Shown here: positions 471 to 16,085 of the stretch, one piece after another | Position numbering within the stretch: position 1 is the first letter of the stretch | Layout of the letters: each line of letters starts with the position of its first letter | NCBI GenBank assembly: GCA_032298335.1 | Contig: GCA_032298335.1_4702.1 | Source: a phage | Length of the DNA stretch: 43,865 nucleotides | Direction: 5' to 3' (one strand) | Notes under the pieces: model-generated | The model's input: the letters and a program-made list of their open reading frames with translations, nothing else | The model's database searches: none | Told to the model about the DNA's origin: nothing | Program-made: the position numbers and the translations under genes

Positions 471-692
471 ATGTATGCCGTGGTTAATTACTTATTGAAT
501 GAGAGATTAACTATGACATTAAACAACCGTGAACTATCCGTTCTCTTCACTCTGTTGTGCTACATGATTCGTAAAAACGAATTGCTTACAGATGACGAGT
601 TAGCCTTGTATCACCGCTTTCTTAACGAAGGTTGGACCGATACAGTTAATCAATACCGTAACATGATAGATGAGTTGAGGGAGGGTAAATAA
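471..692 (+). CDS. Hypothetical early protein (73 aa)
   Basis: ORF in the early region; no recognisable motif; start codon uncertain (alternative ATG near 513). Confidence 0.45.
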   Translation: MYAVVNYLLNERLTMTLNNRELSVLFTLLCYMIRKNELLTDDELALYHRFLNEGWTDTVNQYRNMIDELREGK

Positions 693-916
693 TGTATCAG
701 CATGAGGTTTTCTTTGAGTCAGCTAGTGAAGCTATCCGCTTCCTTGAAGATATGCTACAAGCTGGCGTAGGTGTTGATGTACATCACTTCCTACTAGATT
801 ACGACACTGAATATCACCGAGTTACCTTAGTATCTGAGTATGACAACCAAGTCATTACTGAGTACCTAGGCAGTGAAGATTACGATTACGATGAAGTAAT
901 CACGACAAATCTCTAA
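692..916 (+). CDS. Hypothetical acidic early protein (74 aa)
   Basis: ATG overlaps the upstream stop (TAATG); GGAGGG ribosome-binding site 7 nt upstream. Confidence 0.5.
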   Translation: MYQHEVFFESASEAIRFLEDMLQAGVGVDVHHFLLDYDTEYHRVTLVSEYDNQVITEYLGSEDYDYDEVITTNL

Positions 917-1303
917 ATTAACTGTTGACAGCCACGGCATACAAGGTTACATTAAGCATCAAGACGGCGACGTCTTTAAACATCCCGCTCTTTAACAATA
1001 CGGTTTGTGTCTTGATAGGCTAACTAACTAAGGTAATTATCATGAAAGGTTTAATTTGTGTAGAACGTATGGTCAATGGTAAACTTGAAATATTACCACT
1101 GGAAAACCAATCTAGCTTCAAAGAGTGGTATGGCTGTTTCTCACTGATTTAAGGTAAAGGCTGGCACTAGTCAGCCTATCAAGGCGCAAACCAAGCTCTT
1201 TAACAATTTGGATGGTAGCTTCTTAGTCTGGATAGGTTAAACCTAGGGGATTCTCTTGAGTCTCCTATAATGTAACCTAACTAACTAAATGAGGATTAAT
1301 AAC

Positions 1304-1657
1304 ATGGCTATGTCTAATATGACTTACTCTCAGGTTTACAACACCGCTCATGCTGCATTAGTTGAACGTATCTGGAATGATGCTATTGATTGTATTGATA
1401 ACGCACATGATGCAATCCATGATGCGGCGGATAGTGCTGTACCAATCTATTATGCTGACATCTTCTCCGTGATGGCGAGTGAAGGAATTGATCATTTCTT
1501 CGAAGACTCCGGCCTGATGCCAGACACTAAGGATGTAACCGTAGTATTGCAAGCCCGTATCTATGAGCAACTCACAATTGATCTATGGGAACGTGTTCAG
1601 TATATGATTGTTGAATACGTCAACTCCGCCGAATATTTAGAAGAAGAAGAGGAATAA
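1304..1657 (+). CDS. ocr: Ocr-like anti-restriction DNA-mimic protein (T7 gp0.3 homolog)
   Basis: 117-aa acidic protein. Starts MAMSNMTY and contains [42 protein letters not shown] and [15 protein letters not shown] with an acidic C-terminus, matching T7 Ocr as I recall it. GAGGA ribosome-binding site before the ATG at 1304. Confidence 0.85.
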
Positions 1658-1659
1658 GA

Positions 1660-1773
1660 ATGGAAAAGCTATACAACTTCATCTTTTCAGACGGTGTAAC
1701 CCTGAAGTGTTCCCTGCGTTTCGCACAAATTCGTGAGGAAGCACTAGGCACTACATACAAACTATTTAGCTGA
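1660..1773 (+). CDS. Small hypothetical protein (37 aa)
   Basis: Short ORF directly after ocr; its stop lies inside a promoter-like element; weak support. Confidence 0.3.
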   Translation: MEKLYNFIFSDGVTLKCSLRFAQIREEALGTTYKLFS

Positions 1774-1788
1774 CACTATAAGAGAAGG
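1762..1788 (+). promoter_or_regulatory. Phage-promoter-like element with altered +1 (ATTTAGCTGACACTATAAGAG)
   Basis: Close to the SP6 consensus ATTTAGGTGACACTATAGAAG but TATAGAAG is replaced by TATAAGAG; upstream of the RNA polymerase gene. Confidence 0.3.
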
Positions 1789-1849
1789 CTTAACAAGGCG
1801 TTGCTACGGTAGCGCCTGATTAAACTTTCACTTACTAGGAGTTAAGACT

Positions 1850-2077
1850 ATGGATTTAGATAGCATCATTATGGCATTTGCTCTTATTGGCTTAAGCTGG
1901 TGCTCCTATCACCTTTACCGTGAGTTCTTATTTGATAAAGCTAAACGCAAACTAAGAAAAGAAGGCGGCAATTACCTTTGTGTAAGAGGTGGGCTTGTAG
2001 AATACATTGCACCTAACGGCACGGAATGCGCCATTAGCAAAGATGCATTTATAGAAACGTGGCATTACATCAAGTAA
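1850..2077 (+). CDS. Hypothetical small membrane protein (75 aa)
   Basis: N-terminal hydrophobic segment IIMAFALIGLSWCSY; AGGAG ribosome-binding site upstream. Confidence 0.5.
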   Translation: MDLDSIIMAFALIGLSWCSYHLYREFLFDKAKRKLRKEGGNYLCVRGGLVEYIAPNGTECAISKDAFIETWHYIK

Positions 2078-2140
2078 CTAGCCTATAGCCTACCTGAGTG
2101 GGTTATGTGATATTTACTTACACTATATAAGGTGACTATT

Positions 2141-3064
2141 ATGACTACTGAAAACATCCTCCTGTCTGTCCGTGAAGCTGCAACCGCTGAGATTAAGCAG
2201 CATTTGGATAATATCGGCACTTCTTACATCAAAGTTGGCGCTTGTCTGAATGAATTACGCGGTGATTTCGAAGGTCAAAAAGACTTTTTAGCTTATGTAG
2301 AATCAGAGTTCGGCATCAAGAAAGCACAATGCTACAAGCTGATGAGTGTAGCCCGTGTCTTTGAAGGAGACGAACGCTTTAAAGGTGTGGCTATGCGTGT
2401 AATGCTGGCGCTTGTTCCTTTCGCTGATGAAAATATAATCATGGAGAAGGCCGCAGAACTCGCCGCAGAGGGCAAGCTGGACACTAACGCCGTAAACGCC
2501 CTGATTGATCCTAAGAAAGAGACAAAGGCCGAGACGGTACAATCTAAGGTTGAGTCGGTAAAACCGCAGGAGAACGCGACTGAGGCCGCAGAAACTATGC
2601 AAGGACATGCAACCTTTGAGGATTTCATCTTAGAGAAGGCGAAAGAGGATTTACAAAGTGTGCCGCCAGTAAGTGAGTCGGGTAACGACGAATCCGCACC
2701 GTGGGAAGATGAAAGCAAGCCGGAAGACACAAAGGCAGCGCCACGGGATAACACGGCTAATACTGAGAATGCCGCTATTGCTGGTCTGCTGGCACAAATT
2801 AAAGCACTGACTGAGCAATTACAGGCAGCTAATGGCCGCATTGCCTCCTTAAGCAGCGCACGCGAAAGCAAGAAAGCAGCCGCGCCTATGCTGCCGCAAT
2901 TCAAATCTTCCTGCTTCTATGCTCGCTTAGGTTTAAGCGCTGAGGAGGCAACGAAGAAAACAGCAGTTAACAAGGCACGCCGCGAACTGGTTAAGCTAGG
3001 CTACGGCGAAGGCCATGAAGCATGGCCCTTAATCTCTGAGGCAGTAGAAGAATTAACTAAGTAA
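2141..3064 (+). CDS. Hypothetical early protein (307 aa)
   Basis: Long early ORF at the position T7 uses for the gp0.7 kinase, but no kinase motifs seen; ribosome-binding site AAGGTGA before the ATG at 2141 (the ORF track starts at a GTG at 2132). Confidence 0.6.
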   Translation: MTTENILLSVREAATAEIKQHLDNIGTSYIKVGACLNELRGDFEGQKDFLAYVESEFGIKKAQCYKLMSVARVFEGDERFKGVAMRVMLALVPFADENIIMEKAAELAAEGKLDTNAVNALIDPKKETKAETVQSKVESVKPQENATEAAETMQGHATFEDFILEKAKEDLQSVPPVSESGNDESAPWEDESKPEDTKAAPRDNTANTENAAIAGLLAQIKALTEQLQAANGRIASLSSARESKKAAAPMLPQFKSSCFYARLGLSAEEATKKTAVNKARRELVKLGYGEGHEAWPLISEAVEELTK

Positions 3065-6211: not shown

Positions 6212-8200
6212 ATGGCTATTATTCAGAATGTACCGTGTCCTGCCTGTCAAAAGAATGGACATGATATTACTGGCAACCATCTTATGATATTTGAGGATGG
6301 CGCTGGTTACTGTAACCGTGGTCACTTCCATGATAATGGGAAGCCTTATTACCATAAGCCAGAGGGTGGTATCGAGATAACCGAATTGCCTATTACTGGC
6401 AATATCAAATATACACCTTCTCAATTCAAAGAAATGGAGAAGGAAGGGAAGATAAGCGACCCTAAGCTACGCGCCATCGCACTTGGTGGTATGCGTATGA
6501 AAGACCGTTGGGAGGTTATGAATGAGCAAGAAAGGGCAGACCAAGAAGCAGAGTGGAAACTTGATGTTGAATGGTTCCTCACGCTTAAGCGTAAGAACCT
6601 TGTATCCCGTCACATTCGAGGTGACATCGCAGCAATGTACGATGTGCGCGTTGGACACGATGAAGAGGGAAGAGTCAACCGTCACTATTATCCACGATAT
6701 GAAAAGGGTGTGCTTGTTGGAGCAAAATGCCGGACGTTGCCGAAGGATTTTAAGTTCGGACACCTAGGTAAACTCTTTGGTATGCAAGATCTTTTCGGTA
6801 TGAATACTTTGTCTCACGTGTTAGACAAGGGGAGGCGAAAGGATTGCTTGCTTATTGTAGGCGGTGAACTTGATGCACTAGCAGCGCAGCAGATGCTCCT
6901 TGATTCTGCCAAGGGTACTAAGTGGGAAGGACAACCATATCATGTGTGGTCTGTCAACAAGGGCGAGTCTTGCCTTGAAGAGATAGTGCAGAACCGTGAG
7001 CATATCGCCCAATTCAAGAAGATTATATGGGGTTTTGATGGAGATGAGGTAGGGCAGAAGCAGAATCAGCAAGCGGCTCGCCTGTTTCCTGGCAAATCCT
7101 ATATCCTTGAATACCCCTCTGGTTGCAAAGATGCTAACAAGGCATTGATGGCTGGCAAGGCCAAAGAGTTTGTTGATGCATGGTTTAATGCCAAGTCATC
7201 TGATGAAGTCTTTGGTAGCCAGATTAAATCTATCGCATCTCAAAGGGATAAGCTCAAGGCTGCACGTCCAGAGCAAGGACTATCATGGCCTTGGCCTAAG
7301 CTGAACAAGGTAACGCTAGGTATTCGTAAGAACCAACTTATCATTGTAGGCGCAGGCTCTGGTGTAGGTAAGACTGAGTTCCTTCGTGAAGTAGTTAAGC
7401 ACCTCATTGAAGAACACGGTGAATCTGTAGGCATCATTTCTACAGAAGACCCGATGGTCAAGGTGTCCCGTGCTTTTATCGGCAAGTGGATTGATAAGCG
7501 TATTGAGTTACCGCCAACCAACGACCCTAAAGAAGACGGATACCGTGAGGTGTTCGACTACACCGAGGAAGAAGCTAACGCCGCCATTGATTATGTAGCT
7601 GATACAGGTAAGCTGTTTGTAGCTGACCTAGAGGGTGACTATTCGATGGAAAAGGTAGAGCAAACTTGCCTAGAGTTTGAGGCTATGGGCATTTCTAATA
7701 TCATCATTGATAACTTAACGGGGATTAAATTAGATGAGCGTGCTTTTGGTGGGAAGGTTGGTGCACTTGATGAATGCGTCAAGCGGATTGGTACTATCAA
7801 AGACCGACACCCGGTTACTATATTCCTTGTATCACACCTTACACGTCCTCCGGCAAACCGTACCCAACACGAAGAAGGTGGCGAAGTTATCCTTTCTGAC
7901 TTCCGAGGCTCAGGCGCTATCGGATTCTGGGCATCTTACGCCTTGGGGATTGAGCGTAATACAAGAGCTGAAACGCTTGACGAAAGGACTACCACGTACA
8001 TCTCTTGTGTCAAAGACCGCGACCAAGGAATATTTTCCGGTACTCGTATAATGCTTAAAGGTGATATTGCTACTGGTCGATTACGTGAACCAGAGCAAAG
8101 ATCTCGACCGTTTGATACTGGTGCTCCAAAAGAACAAACTGTACCAGAAGAAGTAGTGGATAAAGGAGGATTTATTGCTGACGAAGTTGAAGAGTTTTGA
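6212..8200 (+). CDS. Bifunctional DNA primase/helicase (T7 gp4-like)
   Basis: N-terminal zinc-ribbon CPACQ...CNRGHFH; Walker A GAGSGVGKTEF; helicase motifs IIIDNLTG and VSHLTRPPANRTQHEEGGEVILSDFRGSGAIG paralleling T7 gp4; acidic C-terminus ending EEF. Confidence 0.95.
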   Translation: MAIIQNVPCPACQKNGHDITGNHLMIFEDGAGYCNRGHFHDNGKPYYHKPEGGIEITELPITGNIKYTPSQFKEMEKEGKISDPKLRAIALGGMRMKDRWEVMNEQERADQEAEWKLDVEWFLTLKRKNLVSRHIRGDIAAMYDVRVGHDEEGRVNRHYYPRYEKGVLVGAKCRTLPKDFKFGHLGKLFGMQDLFGMNTLSHVLDKGRRKDCLLIVGGELDALAAQQMLLDSAKGTKWEGQPYHVWSVNKGESCLEEIVQNREHIAQFKKIIWGFDGDEVGQKQNQQAARLFPGKSYILEYPSGCKDANKALMAGKAKEFVDAWFNAKSSDEVFGSQIKSIASQRDKLKAARPEQGLSWPWPKLNKVTLGIRKNQLIIVGAGSGVGKTEFLREVVKHLIEEHGESVGIISTEDPMVKVSRAFIGKWIDKRIELPPTNDPKEDGYREVFDYTEEEANAAIDYVADTGKLFVADLEGDYSMEKVEQTCLEFEAMGISNIIIDNLTGIKLDERAFGGKVGALDECVKRIGTIKDRHPVTIFLVSHLTRPPANRTQHEEGGEVILSDFRGSGAIGFWASYALGIERNTRAETLDERTTTYISCVKDRDQGIFSGTRIMLKGDIATGRLREPEQRSRPFDTGAPKEQTVPEEVVDKGGFIADEVEEF

Positions 8201-8663
8201 GGCAGCAGGATATACCATCAAGGAGGATGGTACTATCCTTAACCCTAAAGGTGTAATACTTAAACCGAGCCAATCAGGAAGGAAATTAAAGTATTTATAT
8301 GTAAGTTGGAGACATCAAGGAAGAAGAGTAACAGAGCTTGTACACAGATTGGTTGCTAAGAAGTACATACCCAACCCACACAGTTTACCAGAAGTTCATC
8401 ATAAAGACTTTAACCCTCTTAATTGTCATAAAGACAATCTTGAATGGACAGATGGTAAGACTAATTGTGAGTATAGTTATGCAAGGGTAGAAGCTGCACT
8501 TGCACGTCATGCTACTTTATTGTCACCTGATGGCATTAAGTACGACATATTTAATGTTCGTAAATTCTGCCGCGAACATGGCCTCAATCCACCTAGTGTA
8601 TTTGAGGTGCTTAGTGGTAAACGGAAGTCACATAAAGGGTGGACTATTTACCGGACACTATAG
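8175..8663 (+). CDS. HNH homing endonuclease
   Basis: HRLVA...NP...PEVHHKDFNPLNCHKDNLEWTDGKTN HNH motif; AT-rich relative to neighbours; overlaps the helicase 3' end; paralog of the gene at 43214. Confidence 0.85.
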   Translation: MLTKLKSFEAAGYTIKEDGTILNPKGVILKPSQSGRKLKYLYVSWRHQGRRVTELVHRLVAKKYIPNPHSLPEVHHKDFNPLNCHKDNLEWTDGKTNCEYSYARVEAALARHATLLSPDGIKYDIFNVRKFCREHGLNPPSVFEVLSGKRKSHKGWTIYRTL

Positions 8664-9462: not shown

Positions 9463-9516
9463 CACCTAATTCTTTATTAGGACTTGGTTATAGGGCTAAA
9501 TACTTTGGAGCAATCT

Positions 9517-12063
9517 ATGAAATCAATTGATTGGAAGAAGGAAGCGGAAGGGCGCATCCTAGTTATGGACGCCGAGGCGAAAGGTCTACTTGATGCTATA
9601 CGCTATGGTCATCGTGAAGACGTGCATATCATCTGCTGTATGGACCTGTTGACTACAGAGGAGTTTCTCTTCTTCGACCCGTATGAGATGCGTGACCCTG
9701 AAGCAAGAGAACGCCTGAAGGAATGGGAAGGTCATCAAGATGGTGACTTGGTTGATGGTGTTAACTTCCTGAAGCACTGTGAGGCTATTGTGTCGCAGAA
9801 CTTCCTAGGGTATGACGGTCTTCTCTTTGAGAAAGCATTCCCTGATATTTGGAAAGGCTTTAACTATACCGAGAAGCGCGGTAAGGGCAGACTCCGTGCT
9901 GACCTGTGTCCGGTGCGAGTCATGGATACGCTGGTGATGAGTCGCCTGTTAAACCCCGATAGACGCCTTCCTCCGCAAGCATATGCCAAAGGTATGGGTA
10001 ACGTCGCCCCTCACTCAATTGAGGCGCACGGCATCCGTATAGGTCGCTATAAACCGGAGAACGAGGACTGGTCTAAACTAACTGACCACATGGTTCACCG
10101 TGTACGTGAGGACGTGGCGATTGGTCGTGACTTGTTCCTCTGGCTCTTTAACGGGGAATGGATGGAGCACAAACGCCGTGGCGTGAATAAACGCACGGGC
10201 CTAGGCATTGAGACAGCCTTCCACATGGAGTCCATTGTGGCGCTGGAGATGAGCCGTCAGGCCGAGCGCGGGTTCCGTCTGGACATCGACAAGGCTTTGG
10301 CCCGATGCGAAGAATTGGACGCTAAGATTGATGAGACAGTCGCAGCGTTCCGCCCTCACATGCCTATGCGTATCAAGTCTAAACCTTTTAAACCGGAAGA
10401 AAAGAATGAAGTATGCCAACGCGCAAATGAGTATGGAGCTAGCAACAATATACCTACTGTCCTTGACCCCTCACACTTTCTTCATGCCGAGAGACGAGGA
10501 GATCGCAAGACAGTATGGAGTGTCACTACTAAGTCTGGTGATTGGTCGGCTAGTGTCAAGAAAGACTTTCCTCACCTTAGAGGAAACCGTAATGACACGC
10601 CAAGCATCAAGTGGATTGGCGCTTACTCGCCTGTTACTTTCGAAGAGATTCCCTTGGGTAACAGGGATGCAGTTAAGCAAGTGCTCTATGAGTATGGATG
10701 GAAAGGTGTTGAATTTAACGATACCGAGCAAGCTCATCTCGATGAGCACGGAGTGTTACCAAAACCTTGGAGTGGTAAGATAAATGAAAAGTCCCTCACT
10801 TTATGGCAAGAAAGAGCCGCACGTGAAGGTAAAACAGCCCCTGATTGGTGCTTGGGTATCGCTGCATGGTACATACTCGTATCCCGTCGTGGTCAGATAC
10901 TCAACCGTGGTGACGTTGAAGCCTTCAACGAGAAGGGAACGTGGCCCTCGCAGGCTGGTGTACGAAAGTGTCGCGGCCTTGTACCTGTAGCATTCAACAA
11001 GGAGCTAGGAATCAATGCGCAGCAATACTACGAGAGGTACGGATGTTGGCCTACGTCTGACAAAGATGACGGAGAGTGGCGTGTTCCAGCTGTTGCTATT
11101 AGTATTGGCACTTCTACGTTCCGTATGCGTCATCGTAACGTGGTTAATATTCCTGCCCGTGGCTTGTATCCTTTACGTGATTTATTCATAGCAGGGAAAG
11201 GCAAGCTAATCCTTGGTTGTGACGGTGCAGGTCTTGAACTGCGTGTCCTGTCTCACTTCATGAATGACCCTGAGTACCAAGAGATTGTACTGCACGGTGA
11301 TATTCATACGCATAACCAGATGAAGGCTGGTCTTCCTAAGCGTGATATGGCGAAGACGTTTATATACGCCTTCCTCTATGGTTCTGGTATAGCCAACCTT
11401 GCAGCAGTCTGCGGTGTTACTGAGGAAGAAATGAAGGAAGTTGTGGCAAGATTCGAGATTGAACTACCGTCTCTTGCACGTCTTCGTGAGAATGTTATCG
11501 CACAAGGTAACAAGTTTGGCTACCTGCAAGCACTTGATGGGCATTGGGGTCGCATCCGCATGTCTGGTGGTGAACTTAAAGAGCACACGATGCTTAACGT
11601 ATTACTCCAGATGACTGGCTCTTTGTGTATGAAATATGCATTAGTCAAGGCATTTGCAGTAATGCGCAAGGAAGGTGTAGCTTTGGATGCTATGGGAAAT
11701 CCTTGTGGTGTGGCTAACGTGCATGATGAAATCCAGATGGAAGTTCCTGAAGAGGAGGTCTTGTATCTTAACTACGACCTACCTTTCACCTTAGATGGGT
11801 TCGAAACAGAGAAGGCTGCTGTGAAAGCAGTTTTCGATGCAGAGGAGAAACGTGTTCATGTGGATTCTGAAGGACGTATGTGGTCTGCTGCAAACCTAGT
11901 TAGCGTTGATGCTGATGCTGGTGTATTGCATTGCCAGCGCCGTTATCACCGTGCAGGTCATATCATTGCCGACGCCATGACTTGGGCAGGGCAGTATCTG
12001 AAGATGCGTTGCCCGATGGCAGGAGAATATAAGATTGGCGCAAGCTGGAAGGAAACACACTGA
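9517..12063 (+). CDS. DNA polymerase, family A (T7 gp5-like)
   Basis: Motifs DGAGLELRVLSHFM, GDIHTHNQ and AKTFIYAFLYGSG match T7 DNA polymerase motifs A/B; ATG at 9517 with a ribosome-binding site (the ORF track begins at an upstream TTG at 9484). Confidence 0.95.
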   Translation: MKSIDWKKEAEGRILVMDAEAKGLLDAIRYGHREDVHIICCMDLLTTEEFLFFDPYEMRDPEARERLKEWEGHQDGDLVDGVNFLKHCEAIVSQNFLGYDGLLFEKAFPDIWKGFNYTEKRGKGRLRADLCPVRVMDTLVMSRLLNPDRRLPPQAYAKGMGNVAPHSIEAHGIRIGRYKPENEDWSKLTDHMVHRVREDVAIGRDLFLWLFNGEWMEHKRRGVNKRTGLGIETAFHMESIVALEMSRQAERGFRLDIDKALARCEELDAKIDETVAAFRPHMPMRIKSKPFKPEEKNEVCQRANEYGASNNIPTVLDPSHFLHAERRGDRKTVWSVTTKSGDWSASVKKDFPHLRGNRNDTPSIKWIGAYSPVTFEEIPLGNRDAVKQVLYEYGWKGVEFNDTEQAHLDEHGVLPKPWSGKINEKSLTLWQERAAREGKTAPDWCLGIAAWYILVSRRGQILNRGDVEAFNEKGTWPSQAGVRKCRGLVPVAFNKELGINAQQYYERYGCWPTSDKDDGEWRVPAVAISIGTSTFRMRHRNVVNIPARGLYPLRDLFIAGKGKLILGCDGAGLELRVLSHFMNDPEYQEIVLHGDIHTHNQMKAGLPKRDMAKTFIYAFLYGSGIANLAAVCGVTEEEMKEVVARFEIELPSLARLRENVIAQGNKFGYLQALDGHWGRIRMSGGELKEHTMLNVLLQMTGSLCMKYALVKAFAVMRKEGVALDAMGNPCGVANVHDEIQMEVPEEEVLYLNYDLPFTLDGFETEKAAVKAVFDAEEKRVHVDSEGRMWSAANLVSVDADAGVLHCQRRYHRAGHIIADAMTWAGQYLKMRCPMAGEYKIGASWKETH

Positions 12064-12179
12064 TGGATAGGCTTGACATTATTTGCCTATTCTTCACTCT
12101 CTTTCTTACACTCCTTATGCTTGCTTGTTATGGGAGTATGAGACTAGATATACCTGATGAAGAAGAGGGTTACGACTAA
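12063..12179 (+). CDS. Mini membrane protein (38 aa)
   Basis: ATG overlaps the DNA polymerase stop (TGATG); one hydrophobic helix then an acidic tail ending YD. Confidence 0.4.
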   Translation: MDRLDIICLFFTLFLTLLMLACYGSMRLDIPDEEEGYD

Positions 12180-12277
12180 TGCAAACTGCTTTTATTATTC
12201 TTGGTATCATATTATTTATGGTAGTACTCTGGGCCTTCTCTGGCATTGACCCGGATTGTGATGGTAACTACGACTGA
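12179..12277 (+). CDS. Mini membrane protein (32 aa)
   Basis: ATG overlaps the upstream stop (TAATG); one hydrophobic helix then an acidic tail ending YD; same architecture as the preceding peptide. Confidence 0.4.
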   Translation: MQTAFIILGIILFMVVLWAFSGIDPDCDGNYD

Positions 12278-12345
12278 GTTATACTCAAGGTCACTTACGA
12301 GTGGCCTTTATGGATAACTTATCCCTACTTATTTTGTCTAACATG

Positions 12346-12366
12346 ATTTACTGGACACTATAGAAG
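12346..12366 (+). promoter_or_regulatory. Phage RNA polymerase promoter (ATTTACTGGACACTATAGAAG)
   Basis: Exact match to the consensus defined by the other copies in this window. Confidence 0.85.
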
Positions 12367-12432
12367 GAAAGCCTAGACAATCTAGGTTTATAAGGTAGTA
12401 TAGGTAATTAAGTAAATATAGGAGATATAAAC

Positions 12433-12810
12433 ATGTCTATGGTAACTACTCTGGTATTTGTAGCTCAATACTTTCGTGGTCTGGCTAATAAGTTCAAGTC
12501 CAAGGCTATCAAAGCTATTGAGTCTCGCATCGAGGCAGTACAGGCAGAGCAAGTTAAAGTTGAAGAACATCGTAGTTCTAAAATGATTGACCGCCATAAC
12601 CGCTACTATGCATCTCGTGATGACCTTAATGCACGCCAAGTCAAAGAGGTTGAAGAGATGCTGGCACGTCACCAGCAAGAGCGCGACAGTCTGAAAGCTG
12701 AATTTGAAGAGAACAAGGCATCCATCGCCCTTGTACACCAATCTGCATCTGACAGTCTGAAGAAAGAGATTGTTATGCTTGAAATCGAACTGGACAACCT
12801 GACCAAATAA
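12433..12810 (+). CDS. Hypothetical coiled-coil protein (125 aa)
   Basis: AGGAG ribosome-binding site; charged heptad-like sequence. Confidence 0.6.
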   Translation: MSMVTTLVFVAQYFRGLANKFKSKAIKAIESRIEAVQAEQVKVEEHRSSKMIDRHNRYYASRDDLNARQVKEVEEMLARHQQERDSLKAEFEENKASIALVHQSASDSLKKEIVMLEIELDNLTK

Positions 12811-12816
12811 GGAATT

Positions 12817-13116
12817 ATGATGGAAGAAGTAATTCAAGCTAAACATGTAGGTATCATTTTTCGTGATCTAGAGCAGCGTAAAGTTGCAGGTCACACTCGT
12901 CTGGCTAAAGAGGAAGACACCGCAATCACTACGGTAGAACAAGCAGATGCCTATCGTGGTCCGGAGTTCACTCAAGGTGAAACTTGTCACCAATTGAGCC
13001 TATCACTTTGTGACACTATGGCTATTGTAAATGTGCAAGAAGTCGAAGAGGGTGAGTGTGTCAGTTACATCTACCCTTTAGATACTATTGCACGCATTAA
13101 GGTAATCCATAAGTAA
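12817..13116 (+). CDS. Hypothetical protein (99 aa)
   Basis: ORF with a ribosome-binding site; no motif recognised. Confidence 0.55.
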   Translation: MMEEVIQAKHVGIIFRDLEQRKVAGHTRLAKEEDTAITTVEQADAYRGPEFTQGETCHQLSLSLCDTMAIVNVQEVEEGECVSYIYPLDTIARIKVIHK

Positions 13117-13135
13117 TTACTGGACACTATAGAAC
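13115..13135 (+). promoter_or_regulatory. Phage RNA polymerase promoter (AATTACTGGACACTATAGAAC)
   Basis: Consensus core CACTATAGAA; overlaps the upstream stop codon. Confidence 0.8.
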
Positions 13136-13276
13136 AATAGGTCGGCTTAGTTCGGCCTATGATTGTAAAGTGTTGAACCATTGTGCATCTTGCACAACCC
13201 GATACCGTATCGGGCTTTCTAGTGAGTACATGCTTGTGCTCAGTACAAAGCTAACTGACAATAGGAGACTAAATAA

Positions 13277-14083
13277 ATGGCACGTGGTGATTTTGATTTT
13301 GGTGCTTCCGTATCTAAAGCTGAAGGTAAAGTCTTTAAGAACCCAGAAGTAGGTGATCATGAAGCAGTAATCTCTGGCATCATTCATGTTGGTTCCTTCC
13401 AAGATATCTTTAAGAAAGGTAATACCACTGAAGTTAAGAAGCCAGCAAACTTTGTTCTTGTTAAGATTATCCTGATGGGTGACGACGATAAGAATGAAGA
13501 TGATTCTCGCATGGAACAATGGATGGCTGTGCCTCTGAAGTCTGGTGATAAGGCAACACTGACTAAGTTCCTGAATGCAGTTGACCCTAAAGAGTTGCTG
13601 GGTGGCTTCGATGATTTTATCGGTGAATGTCTGACTGCAACTATGGTTGGCTCTGGCGACAAGAATGATGATGGTACTTTCAAGTATGTTAACTGGAAAG
13701 GCTTTGGCGGTATGCCTGATAAGTTGAAGAAGCTTGTACTGGCTCAGGTAGAAGAGGAAGGTCTGTCTATGACAGGTCATATCACCTTCGACAAGCTGAC
13801 CAAAGAAATCCTTGATGACATTCCTGCTAACTGGGTGCGTCAATACTTCCTTAATGAAACACCTCGTGGTAAGAACCTGTCTGTTGCTGGTTCTCACGTA
13901 GAAGCAATCATTAAAGCTGCTCGTGAAGAAGACCCAGAGTGGAAGAAAGCCAAGAAGAAAGATGACGAGGATGCTACTCCAGCTAATCGTAAATCTCTGG
14001 ATACTGGTGAGTCTGTTCCACAGGAAGTACCTGAAGCAGAAGATACTCCTGCACCGGAGATGGATGAGGACGCGGAATATTAA
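13277..14083 (+). CDS. Acidic-tailed protein, candidate ssDNA-binding protein (268 aa)
   Basis: High-expression codon usage; acidic C-terminal tail ending DEDAEY; comparable in size and position class to T7 gp2.5. The functional call is an inference. Confidence 0.6.
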   Translation: MARGDFDFGASVSKAEGKVFKNPEVGDHEAVISGIIHVGSFQDIFKKGNTTEVKKPANFVLVKIILMGDDDKNEDDSRMEQWMAVPLKSGDKATLTKFLNAVDPKELLGGFDDFIGECLTATMVGSGDKNDDGTFKYVNWKGFGGMPDKLKKLVLAQVEEEGLSMTGHITFDKLTKEILDDIPANWVRQYFLNETPRGKNLSVAGSHVEAIIKAAREEDPEWKKAKKKDDEDATPANRKSLDTGESVPQEVPEAEDTPAPEMDEDAEY

Positions 14084-14092
14084 GGAGAAAGG

Positions 14093-14311
14093 ATGAAAGT
14101 ACAAATCGTAACCCTGCACTGCAAGAAAGGTGTCACAACGCTCGGAGGTAGCACTTTCCACTCTTTCTCCGAAGGGGAGATTTATGCTGACCTGCACTAC
14201 ATCTGGCGCGACGGACAGCACGTGGTGAACTACAGCGACCCAGCTACGGGGAAACGCCACGGCGTATCGCTTCCTGCGCATGACATTGCTCAGGTGAACA
14301 CAGTTTTATAA
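14093..14311 (+). CDS. Hypothetical protein (72 aa)
   Basis: AAGGAG ribosome-binding site; no motif recognised. Confidence 0.55.
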   Translation: MKVQIVTLHCKKGVTTLGGSTFHSFSEGEIYADLHYIWRDGQHVVNYSDPATGKRHGVSLPAHDIAQVNTVL

Positions 14312-14312
14312 A

Positions 14313-14328
14313 GTCTCACATGTGAGAC
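14313..14328. repeat. 16-bp perfect palindrome GTCTCACATGTGAGAC (copy 4)
   Basis: Exact copy, 16 nt upstream of the promoter at 14344. Confidence 0.9.
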
Positions 14329-14343
14329 AAATCGGTGTCCGGT

Positions 14344-14364
14344 ATTTACTGGACACTATAGAAG
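14344..14364 (+). promoter_or_regulatory. Phage RNA polymerase promoter (ATTTACTGGACACTATAGAAG)
   Basis: Exact consensus. Confidence 0.85.
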
Positions 14365-14415
14365 AGAAGAATTTTAATCGGCGATAATGCCACAACTAAC
14401 AAAGGAGAATTTAAT

Positions 14416-14790
14416 ATGTTCAAGATTGAAACTATCGTAAACCGTGTTGTTAAAGGTGCTGCTCTGGTATCCGTTGAGTCTTTCATTATCGTCGATGAAG
14501 CTGATCAACTGGTAGCTGGTACTAAGGCTTATGATACTCGTGAAGAAGCTCAGGCTAAGATTGACAGCATGGGTAACTTCGCTGCGGGTCTGGAGTTCGC
14601 TCGTGCTTGCTTCCCTGAGCAGGCTGACAAAGCTCAGATTGGTAAGGCTAATATCGTAGCTGAATATCTGGATTGGATTGCTGCTGGTAAGCCGGTGAAA
14701 GAAGTTAAAGCTGCGGAAGAAGTTGAAGCTCCGGCAGTAGAAGAAGTAGCTGCACCGGAAGTTCCGGTAAGCGAAGAAGAAGAGTTTTAA
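14416..14790 (+). CDS. Small highly acidic protein with C-terminal EEEEF tail (124 aa)
   Basis: Strong ribosome-binding site; codon usage like the capsid gene; net charge about -13; own promoter upstream and terminator-like hairpin downstream. Confidence 0.7.
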   Translation: MFKIETIVNRVVKGAALVSVESFIIVDEADQLVAGTKAYDTREEAQAKIDSMGNFAAGLEFARACFPEQADKAQIGKANIVAEYLDWIAAGKPVKEVKAAEEVEAPAVEEVAAPEVPVSEEEEF

Positions 14791-14801
14791 TTGATGCCCT
14801 G

Positions 14802-14828
14802 TCTGCCTTAGTGTAGGCAGGGTCTTTG
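14802..14828 (+). terminator. Candidate terminator hairpin
   Basis: Stem CTGCCT / AGGCAG (6 bp plus one G-U) with loop TAGTGT, then TCTTT. Confidence 0.45.
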
Positions 14829-14853
14829 CGTAATAGTTATTGTAGAATGAATT

Positions 14854-15144
14854 ATGCCGACTATTGAAGAACGTTTCCTGATTCACGTGAGCTTCTCATC
14901 CATACATCTTGGTTATCTTATCACTATTCTCTTAGGTGAAGAGATTTATCTGCATAACCACTTAATACCAGAGTATGTATGTCACCGAGATAAGATACAC
15001 CCTGCTAATTGGGCGAAAGAGTGGCTGCGTGAACATGTGCTGAAGGAGTGGCCTACATGCGACCAAACTTCGACTTCGGAGCTACAGTATCGGAAGACAA
15101 TAACCTGTTGCTGTGGCCAACTGAAGGTAATCGAATCGCTTTAA
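14854..15144 (+). CDS. Questionable ORF (96 aa) overlapping the exonuclease start
   Basis: Fills a 230-bp gap but has no ribosome-binding site and overlaps the exonuclease gene by about 90 bp in another frame. Confidence 0.25.
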   Translation: MPTIEERFLIHVSFSSIHLGYLITILLGEEIYLHNHLIPEYVCHRDKIHPANWAKEWLREHVLKEWPTCDQTSTSELQYRKTITCCCGQLKVIESL

Positions 15145-16085
15145 TAGATGCTGATATGTTACCTTACATCGTCGGGTATACAATCAGTGACATGACTTAT
15201 GTACGAGCTACAACTCGTGTTAAGTCAGGACAAGTCCCATCAATCAAAGATACCCCTGAGTGTAAGCAAGCGTGTGACCGTGTGAACTCCTTGCTTAACT
15301 CTTGGGTGTATGCAGCAGAGTGTGATGCAGCTAAGTTATTCATGACGAAATCAGAAGCTAACTTCCGTGTTCGCCTAGCCTTCACCAAGCCTTATAAGGG
15401 TCAACGTAAGACCGAGAAGCCTCCGTTCTTCTATGAATTGCGAGAGCATCTCTTAGAGGTTCATGGTGCAATCTTGGCAGATGGAGAAGAGGCTGATGAC
15501 CTCATGAGCATTGCACAATGGGACAGCCACCGCCGCTTCCAGCAAGATACAGGTAACGAGTTCCCTATCGGTAGTCCAGAGCATAAAGCATTCTCTGATA
15601 CTTGCATCGTTTCCTTAGATAAGGATTTGATGATTGTTCCCGGTTGGCATCTTCAGCCGGGTCAAGAGAAGAAATGGGTAGAGCCTATGGGTTGGCTTGA
15701 GTTACGCCGTAAGGCTAATGGTCAGGTTAAAGACCTTAAGGGTGCTGGCCTCATGTTTCATTATGCACAGATGATTATCGGTGATGATATTGATAACTAT
15801 GCTGGCATACCTGGACGTGGTGCTAAATACGCCTATGATCTTCTCAAAGATTGTAAGACAGAGAAAGAGTTGTACATGGCAGTGCTTGGTGCTTACAAGG
15901 CTAAGTTCGGACATGGACAAGTTAAGATTAAGAATTACCGAGGGGGTTATCGTATCGGCAAGGCTTTTGACCTGATGCTCGAATGTGGTCGCCTAGCTCA
16001 CATGGCAGGATTCAAAGGTGATATATGGCGAGCCGATAAGAACCCAATCTTGTGGGGAGATGATGCGGAATGGTTAGCAAATTAA
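15057..16085 (+). CDS. 5'-3' exonuclease (T7 gp6-like)
   Basis: IALIDADMLPYIV and GDDIDNYAGIPG parallel T7 gp6 ILVMDGDWLVF and GDITDGYSGIAG; GAAGGAG ribosome-binding site before the ATG at 15057. Confidence 0.9.
   Translation: MRPNFDFGATVSEDNNLLLWPTEGNRIALIDADMLPYIVGYTISDMTYVRATTRVKSGQVPSIKDTPECKQACDRVNSLLNSWVYAAECDAAKLFMTKSEANFRVRLAFTKPYKGQRKTEKPPFFYELREHLLEVHGAILADGEEADDLMSIAQWDSHRRFQQDTGNEFPIGSPEHKAFSDTCIVSLDKDLMIVPGWHLQPGQEKKWVEPMGWLELRRKANGQVKDLKGAGLMFHYAQMIIGDDIDNYAGIPGRGAKYAYDLLKDCKTEKELYMAVLGAYKAKFGHGQVKIKNYRGGYRIGKAFDLMLECGRLAHMAGFKGDIWRADKNPILWGDDAEWLAN

Follow-up and report, generated by a model that had tools for sequence, protein, structure and literature searches.

The phage contig GCA_032298335.1_4702.1 (NCBI GenBank assembly GCA_032298335.1; 43,865 nucleotides, its whole length being the window of this analysis) carries a block of five open reading frames (ORFs) and three promoters between the genes for a family-A DNA polymerase and a FEN-like 5'-3' exonuclease. 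This block probably is a middle-gene replication module of an SP6-like phage and would be centered on an SSB (single-stranded-DNA-binding protein). The SSB would be the product of gene 16 (gp16), and acidic, aromatic-ended C-terminal tails together with a short N-terminal peptide would serve as docking elements. The 3.2 kb around the block are 92-99% identical to Vectrevirus genomes (K1-5, K1E, and many K1-capsule coliphages), and more distant matches are found in SP6-type Salmonella and Klebsiella phages. Judged by this identity, the window is that of a Vectrevirus, SP6-like and of the K1-5/K1E type. The five ORFs are genes 15, 15.5, 16, 17, and 18 of K1-5/K1E, located between gene 13 (DNA polymerase) and gene 20 (exonuclease). 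The genes and the replication proteins with which they are compared below are:

6212..8200, + strand: primase-helicase, outside the block, with the C-terminal tail ...ADEVEEF (Pfam DnaB_C and Toprim_2)
9484-12063: family-A DNA polymerase, upstream flank
12433..12810, + strand: gene 15, 125 amino acids (phrog_7450)
12817..13116, + strand: gene 15.5, 99 amino acids (phrog_8057)
13277..14083, + strand: gene 16, 268 amino acids, predicted single-stranded-DNA-binding protein (phrog_862)
14093..14311, + strand: gene 17, 72 amino acids, small conserved protein (phrog_5791, with a weak phrog_8057 match)
14416..14790, + strand: gene 18, 124 amino acids, proposed replisome accessory protein (phrog_4429; AlphaFold2 model)
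15057..16085, + strand: FEN-like 5'-3' exonuclease (K1-5 gene 20), downstream flank, N-terminus MRPNFDFGATVS (phrog_107 exonuclease, E 1.5e-71; T7 gp6, BLASTP E 0.001)

An AlphaFold2 model of gp16, built from an alignment (predicted local distance difference test, pLDDT, 78.6; predicted template modeling score, pTM, 0.72), consists of a disordered N-terminal tail (residues 1-18) with the motif FDFGA, a beta-barrel with an oligonucleotide/oligosaccharide-binding (OB) fold (~26-145), a helical domain (148-218), and a C-terminal tail, which is acidic and disordered. The predicted core is the OB fold expected of an SSB that resembles T7 gp2.5, and Foldseek linked gp16 to DUF669 proteins with E-values of 3e-5 to 1e-4, a similarity at the level of the fold only. 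The protein ends with ...EMDEDAEY, and the pattern ...[ML]D-x-x-x-E-[YF] is present in all 26 aligned homologs. Of 92 family representatives, 51 have a tail that is acidic and terminates with an aromatic residue, and several distant relatives end with DDDIPF, DDEIPF, or DDEVPF, the canonical tip of Escherichia coli SSB. A homology search retrieved 43 relatives of gp16 with 33-96% identity, and another 102 sequences (clusters at 50% identity) came from a profile search that covered 1.84 billion cluster representatives. The family falls into phrog_862, 6599, 2544, and 32668, all of which are labeled 'unknown function', and one member weakly matches the SSB family phrog_378. Homologs occur in 216 phage records, where all 60 sampled rows are hypothetical, of 'unknown function', or unannotated. 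No SSB is recorded in the annotation of K1-5, and none besides gp16 was recognized among those early and middle ORFs of the window that were scanned with PHROG and Pfam. The genome codes for a replisome of its own, and within this scope gp16 is its sole SSB candidate. A consensus promoter of its own precedes gene 16, comparable to phi2.5 in front of T7 gene 2.5 (T7 annotation), and the dense promoters would fit the need for stoichiometric amounts of an SSB. Based on the modeled fold and its context, gp16 most likely is the phage's own, unannotated SSB, which would bind single-stranded DNA (ssDNA).

The C-terminal tail of gp16 is not unique in this genome. Among all 255 ORFs of at least 40 amino acids on both strands of the window, exactly three combine an acidic stretch with an aromatic end, namely the primase-helicase (...ADEVEEF), gp16 (...MDEDAEY), and gp18 (...SEEEEF). 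The three tails were compared in 40 related loci, which were taken from IMG/VR and are numbered with an L. In a clade of Klebsiella phages (L029-L031), Tyr is the last residue of each tail (...EEESEY, ...DEGAEY, and ...TEAEEY). In L041 (...EPETFD, ...EEEVFE, and ...EEAFEG) and L042 (...EPKTFE, ...EEQTFD, and ...EEESFS), each tail has its Phe shifted to -2 or -3. Such a joint change of the helicase, gp16, and gp18 tails is the pattern expected if one receptor serves all three. In T7, the tails of gp4 and gp2.5 both engage the polymerase, the gp2.5 tail anchors to a front basic patch, and a DTDF peptide that mimics the gp4 tail was seen on gp5 in PDB 6P7E (PMC12339929). By analogy, the three tails probably plug into one receptor site, which most likely would be located on the DNA polymerase. 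The AlphaFold2 model of gp18 (pLDDT 75) contains a domain of ~95 residues with a beta-hairpin and three helices, an Ala/Glu/Pro linker, and the disordered acidic tail, and the terminal phenylalanine (F124) is invariant in 34 sequences. These features suggest that gp18 is a replisome accessory or regulatory subunit, not recognized before, that would use the same type of tail as the helicase and gp16. No description of such a third tail-bearing protein was found in the searchable literature.

At the 3' end of the helicase gene (~8150-8200), the encoded C-terminus reads ...VDKGGFIADEVEEF in the window, whereas close relatives have ...DTIEETNFDEESEF; the acidic tail with its terminal Phe is kept. 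The final codons of the primase-helicase gene contain the start of an HNH homing-endonuclease ORF (8175-8663; phrog_59; Pfam HNH_3 and an I-HmuI NUMOD-like domain). This arrangement looks like a homing-endonuclease insertion whose flank was co-converted under selection to retain the tail.

A second short peptide links gp16 to the exonuclease. The N-terminus of gp16 is MARGDFDFGASVS and that of the exonuclease is MRPNFDFGATVS, and the motif common to them occurs only these two times in a six-frame translation of the window. In 40 of 40 related loci, F-x-[FY]-G-x lies a few residues from the start of both proteins. Among the 952 ORFs of these loci, the motif is found at the N-termini of gp16, the exonuclease, and two stray matches, and the remaining matches represent an unrelated internal polymerase motif, FLYGSG. 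Position 5 of the motif co-varies between gp16 and the exonuclease (A/A, G/G, V/V, T/C), as do the flanking residues (for example, FDYGVDKDEL and FDYGVAPEEL). Within a genome, the two N-termini are identical at 5.85 of 12 positions compared with 4.60 +/- 0.21 when partners are shuffled, a difference that is inflated by shared ancestry. The motif is encoded by TTT GAT TTT GGT in gene 16 and by TTC GAC TTC GGA in the exonuclease gene, and these different codons indicate conservation at the protein level. In PrgE, an OB-fold protein of plasmid pCF10, the N-terminal tail docks on the neighboring subunit and mediates oligomerization and cooperativity (PMC11137577). On this analogy, the F-x-[FY]-G peptide is best read as a self-association tail of gp16, and the best inference for the exonuclease is that it copies this peptide to load onto gp16-coated DNA. 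A peptide shared by an SSB and an exonuclease was not found described in the searchable literature.

The idea of an SSB-guided nuclease has a parallel in phage T4, whose RNase H, also a 5'-3' exonuclease of the FEN type, is targeted to lagging-strand intermediates by direct contact with the phage SSB, gp32. To our knowledge, no N-terminal peptide mimicry between SSB and nuclease has been described for this pair, whereas the contact proposed here would consist of a short, duplicated N-terminal peptide.

Two further observations concern these termini. In L032 (4881-4989) and L033 (2004-2100), both of metagenomic origin, the exonuclease seems to start with ATT or ATC, 5 nucleotides after a perfect AAGGAGG; this non-ATG start places F-D-Y-G at residue 3, and standard ORF callers lose ~35 residues. 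N4-type SSBs (L127-L146) carry one short motif at both of their ends (N-terminal M-S-(N)-L-F-G-N-L and C-terminal ...K-S-L-F-G-K-K), which may be another case of a terminal peptide on a divergent phage SSB.

In the proposed mechanism, gp16 would be the functional counterpart of T7 gp2.5, with an OB-fold core that coats ssDNA. Its disordered N-terminal F-D-F-G-A most likely docks on a neighboring molecule, in the manner of the PrgE tail, and its acidic, aromatic-ended C-terminal tail would recruit a partner. If the exonuclease docks through its own N-terminal peptide at the site where the gp16 tail docks, this would direct it to SSB-coated intermediates of the lagging strand or of recombination. 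A more far-reaching and tentative proposal, which we hold with clearly less confidence than the SSB-centered module itself, is that the replisome of SP6-like phages (Molineuxvirinae and related podophages of Vibrio, Pseudomonas, and Marinomonas) might be organized by two kinds of short peptides: acidic-aromatic tails that compete with each other, and the N-terminal peptide of a nuclease that mimics the self-association tail of the SSB and thereby loads on the ends of SSB filaments.

The T7 replisome is the closest functional model for this arrangement. Both phages belong to the Autographiviridae; in both, the SSB (here the candidate gp16) would have an OB-fold core and a C-terminal tail, acidic and disordered, that ends with an aromatic residue, the helicase has a similar tail, and a dedicated phage promoter lies directly upstream of the SSB gene. 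However, gene 16 follows the polymerase gene, whereas T7 gene 2.5 precedes the helicase gene, and gp16 differs from gp2.5 by its extra helical domain and the conserved N-terminal peptide in common with the exonuclease. The third tail-bearing protein, gp18, also lacks a counterpart in T7. Divergent viral OB-fold SSBs of the N4 SSB/DUF669 type (Kazlauskas et al., 2016; PMC4889955) resemble gp16 in their highly diverged OB folds, their acidic C-terminal tails, and their presence in phages that lack a recognizable SSB. PrgE (PDB 8s4s), a phage-derived OB-fold DNA binder and the precedent for the N-terminal tail of gp16, shares only 15% identity with gp16, is 144 amino acids long, lacks a long acidic aromatic tail, and is dispensable for conjugation; moreover, the contacts of its N-terminal tail are polar, whereas the gp16 motif is aromatic.

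Several results weigh against an SSB-centered module of this kind. No sequence-level link connects gp16 to characterized SSBs, and searches of Pfam and of PDB sequences returned no match for it. Alignments by hhalign with T7 gp2.5 alone and with an alignment of 62 homologs gave probabilities of 0.1-0.4%, and the probability for the N4 SSB family was 1.5%. PrgE, which binds double-stranded as well as single-stranded DNA, differs from a typical SSB. Shared ancestry inflates the statistics of co-variation, and the concordant changes of the tails perhaps represent only two evolutionary events. Furthermore, the loop with the T7 front basic patch (K587-R599), which receives the tail in T7, falls into an alignment gap of the polymerase encoded in the window; the tail receptor therefore differs from the T7 site and may not be the polymerase. 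For gp18, a fold search gave only matches of low Z and high root-mean-square deviation and thus no structural relative, and a comparison with its positional counterparts in the most distant loci reached an hhalign probability of 1.6%, which leaves synteny only. Remote-homology and structure searches, which the original prediction for this block had proposed for each ORF, yielded an OB fold in the case of gp16; for gp18, PDB and Pfam provided no sequence match either.

Membership of gp16 in known SSB families was considered and rejected. The gp2.5 sequence family was rejected on the null results of hhalign and of BLASTP, in which none of the five proteins resembled T7 gp2.5. The N4 SSB and DUF669 sequence families were rejected on the hhalign result and on a Pfam scan, which found no domain in any of 92 gp16 family members (DUF669 in 0 of 92). 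The claim for gp16 therefore is that it works like gp2.5, not that it is a homolog of gp2.5.

A different function of the OB fold is an alternative that we consider unlikely. Here, gp16 would be a replication initiator or origin binder, or a mediator of annealing or recombination that acts with the exonuclease like a system of the Exo/Beta type. The NCBIfam model 'phage replication initiation protein, NGO0469 family' matches gp16 weakly (E 0.0016), and this match, with 18 bits against a cut-off of 75, is far below the threshold. The proximity of gene 16 to the exonuclease and endonuclease VII genes and the N-terminal peptide common to gp16 and the exonuclease would suit a recombination function, and T7 gp2.5 itself anneals ssDNA (annotation note). 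However, an annealing activity would supplement the role as SSB, as in T7, and would not substitute for it. The SSB-type tails, with DDDIPF tips in distant members, speak for a place at the replication fork, as does their co-variation with the tail of the helicase.

The conservation of the block bears on its function as a whole. Even at identities as low as 30%, genes 16 and 18 are found in the same order between the polymerase and exonuclease genes, and this order is shared by phages of Escherichia, Salmonella, Klebsiella, Proteus, Vibrio, Pseudomonas, and Marinomonas. Wherever an ORF of the gp15.5/gp17 type can be detected, it comes after gene 16. Ratios of nonsynonymous to synonymous substitution rates (dN/dS) were estimated against three relatives and are approximate, as dS is saturated. 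They amount to 0.05-0.13 for gene 16, 0.08-0.25 for gene 17, 0.08-0.21 for gene 18, and 0.13-0.40 for gene 15, compared with about 0.05 for the polymerase. The range of 0.05-0.40 across genes 15, 16, 17, and 18 is evidence that they are coding, and genes 16, 17, and 18 are under purifying selection close to that of the polymerase. The conserved core of the block consists of genes 16 and 18, which account for 392 of its 688 codons, with a gene of the gp15.5/gp17 type kept after gene 16.

The retained gene order and the polymerase-like constraint are not the profile of accessory anti-defense genes. This affects the original prediction, which had regarded the block as the best place in the genome to look for anti-defense or host-shutoff functions by analogy to T7 genes 5.5, 5.7, and 5.9. 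A host-takeover cassette of this type would encode nuclease inhibitors, DNA mimics, or H-NS antagonists, and gp18 (isoelectric point 4.3) would act as an acidic decoy or would mimic DNA. The T7 genes, which include an H-NS antagonist and a RecBCD inhibitor, indeed occupy the corresponding interval, from polymerase to exonuclease, and the proteins of the block have no annotated function. The net charges of gp18 (-13.5) and gp16 (-18) and the SSB-like tail, which could titrate host proteins that bind the SSB tail, would also be compatible with host interference. In BLASTP comparisons with T7 gp5.3, 5.5, 5.7, and 5.9, however, none of the five proteins gave a match below E 0.4 (Ocr was outside this comparison), and the analogy to T7 is therefore positional only. 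While genes 5.3 to 5.9 are dispensable in T7, the block has a conserved core. In addition, the acidity of gp18 sits in a disordered helicase-like tail and is not spread across a DNA-mimic surface, and gp16 has a predicted OB fold. Patchy occurrence and fast evolution, which would suit a cassette of this kind, are features of gp15.5, which is present in 5 of 23 loci, and in part of gp15, with its dN/dS of up to 0.40; in contrast, the genes for gp16 to gp18 are syntenic with dN/dS of 0.05-0.25. As a reading of the whole block, anti-defense is weakly supported and in our view improbable. The host-interference idea survives only for gp15 and gp15.5, which look accessory, whereas gp16 and gp18 look like parts of the replisome. 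The five proteins have not, as a set, turned out to be structural or core proteins with known homologs, an outcome that would have spoken against any function in host interference.

A more conventional place for anti-defense functions is the early region of the window. There, an ocr-like anti-restriction gene (1289-1657; phrog_2568, E 3e-46), whose product ends with EEEEE, is accompanied by neighboring ORFs of unknown function (471-3064).

Least probable of all is that the shared N-terminal peptide and the C-terminal tails bind a host factor (the clamp, partners of the host SSB, or a protease), serve as degrons or signals of stability, or arose by gene conversion: the missing T7 basic patch in this polymerase and the host-type tip DDDIPF of distant gp16 relatives, which in E. 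coli SSB binds many host proteins, would agree with a host receptor, but the motifs co-vary among phage proteins within genomes across very different hosts, the clamp-binding consensus QL[SD]LF is not matched by the F-x-[FY]-G motif, and the different codons of its two copies argue against a recent gene conversion.

In the block, exact copies of the 18-mer TTACTGGACACTATAGAA are located at 12348, 13117, and 14346; the positions 12346, 13115, and 14344 given for the promoters in the original prediction are the same sites with an ATTT lead-in counted. The whole window contains six exact and 11 near copies (up to three mismatches) of this 18-mer, all of them on the + strand, compared with a chance expectation of 0.06, and three of the six exact copies thus lie within 2.0 kb. 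All three sites have the properties of promoters for a single-subunit RNA polymerase of the SP6/K1-5 type: they match ATTTACTGGACACTATAGAAG, are intergenic, are oriented with the genes, and hold conserved positions. Upstream of genes 15, 16, and 18 these positions are retained in 22 of 23 related loci with this promoter type, at distances of ~79 nucleotides from gene 15, a variable 24-203 nucleotides from gene 16, and ~65 nucleotides from gene 18. Each of the five ORFs is preceded by an AGGAG-type ribosome-binding site, as read from the sequence. The coordinates, ribosome-binding sites, exact 18-mers, and conservation of the promoters all agree with the five ORFs and three consensus promoters that the original prediction had described between the polymerase and exonuclease genes. 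The promoters and predicted RNA structures are:

12287..12308, + strand: stem-loop after gene 14, which would close the polymerase transcription unit, just upstream of promoter 1 (fold of 12270-12345: -19.0 kcal/mol, z -3.1)
12346..12366, + strand: promoter 1 (ATTTACTGGACACTATAGAAG), predicted to drive genes 15 and 15.5 (exact 18-mer at 12348-12365)
13115..13135, + strand: promoter 2, directly upstream of gene 16 (exact 18-mer at 13117-13134)
13137..13250, + strand: 5' leader of the mRNA for gene 16, predicted to form four hairpins (13131-13290 folded: -47.6 kcal/mol, z -2.3)
14344..14364, + strand: promoter 3, predicted to drive gene 18 (exact 18-mer at 14346-14363)
14796..14823, + strand: 11-bp hairpin directly after the stop codon of gene 18, followed by UCUUUG, terminator-like (-18.3 kcal/mol, z -3.5; none of 200 shuffled sequences folds equally well)

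The best explanation of this layout is that the block is transcribed as three promoter-driven units, which would combine gene 15 with 15.5 and gene 16 with 17 and leave gene 18 by itself. The predicted transcription starts (+1) of these units are 12363, 13132, and 14361. The leader of gene 16 differs in length among close relatives, with a distance from promoter to ATG of mostly 71, ~155, or ~203 nucleotides. An Rfam scan of the block detected no RNA family, in this leader or elsewhere; the leader may represent a processing site, for example of RNase III, or a translational operator for autoregulation of the SSB as in T4 gene 32.

All five proteins are uncharacterized, as the original prediction had stated. 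PHROGs lists four of the five families under 'unknown function', Pfam scans of all five yielded sub-threshold noise only, NCBIfam matches were far below threshold throughout, and PDB sequence searches with single sequences and profiles gave no usable match. The lone functional label, that of gp15 as a 'polysaccharide chain length determinant' (Wzz-type), is spurious. It is based on a match to TIGR03007 of 20.9 bits, compared with a cut-off of 278.85, which reflects coiled-coil composition only, and should therefore be disregarded. A hydrophobic N-terminal helix of gp15 is followed by a coiled coil; its only hydrophobic stretch has a Kyte-Doolittle value, estimated by hand, of ~0.6, which is too low for a membrane helix; two such helices would enclose the periplasmic coiled coil of a Wzz-type protein. 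The protein evolves faster than its neighbors and has no match in PDB or Pfam. Distant relatives contain no detectable homolog, and the small coiled-coil ORF located at the same place in these phages aligned to gp15 with an hhalign probability of 0.6%.

Of the 23 loci that have promoters of the K1-5/SP6 type, only 5 contain gene 15.5, whereas gene 17 is always placed immediately after gene 16. Relatives that resemble Vibrio phages (L036, L040, and L041) have a single ORF of 91-93 amino acids right after gene 16, which matches both gp15.5 (BLASTP E 4e-17 to 9e-9) and gp17 (E 6e-5 to 7e-4). The link between gp15.5 and gp17 is also apparent from their PHROG cross-match and from pairwise BLAST (E 0.003), although a direct profile comparison without the intermediates is weak (E 0.04). 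According to these sequence matches, gp15.5 is a paralog of gp17 and a sporadic extra copy. The only plausible accessory genes of the block are those of gp15 and gp15.5, which may be candidates for an interaction with the host.

The flanks of the block contain additional small ORFs. Genes 13.5 and 14 (12063-12179 and 12179-12277; 38 and 32 amino acids; phrog_15860 and phrog_4539) are tiny conserved ORFs between the polymerase gene and promoter 1. Each of their products has one hydrophobic helix and an acidic C-terminus that ends with ...GYD or ...GNYD, and they may be paralogous small membrane peptides. ORF 19 (14854-15144), between gene 18 and the exonuclease gene, overlaps the start of the latter in another frame. 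With 32-93% identity where the flanking genes reach 66-100%, and a dN/dS of 0.22-0.79, its 'DNA repair protein' label (RefSeq, PHROG) is doubtful, as perhaps is the gene itself. From gene 18 to the exonuclease gene, the sequence is a hot spot of mosaicism.

SP6, K1-5, and K1E are widely used, be it as the source of SP6 RNA polymerase or in therapy work that targets the K1 capsule, and yet the K1-5 record is without an annotated SSB. If gp16 is this SSB, a gap in the replisome parts list would be filled for the whole subfamily, and a name would be given to a large family of proteins that lack annotation (102 representatives of clusters at 50% identity, no Pfam model). Such an assignment would define a new family of a known kind, whereas the third tail-bearing protein and the shared N-terminal peptide appear undescribed. 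For screens of anti-defense functions, deletions of genes 16 and 18 likely would be lethal rather than informative on defense, and the realistic candidates for accessory genes in this block are 15 and 15.5. If the replisome indeed is organized by two kinds of peptides, phrog_862 and its relatives would represent a previously unannotated SSB family and a new example of how tail mimicry recruits nucleases. The co-varying tails and the shared N-terminal peptide bear on the question of how helicase, polymerase, SSB, and the nuclease that removes primers are coordinated in small phage replisomes.

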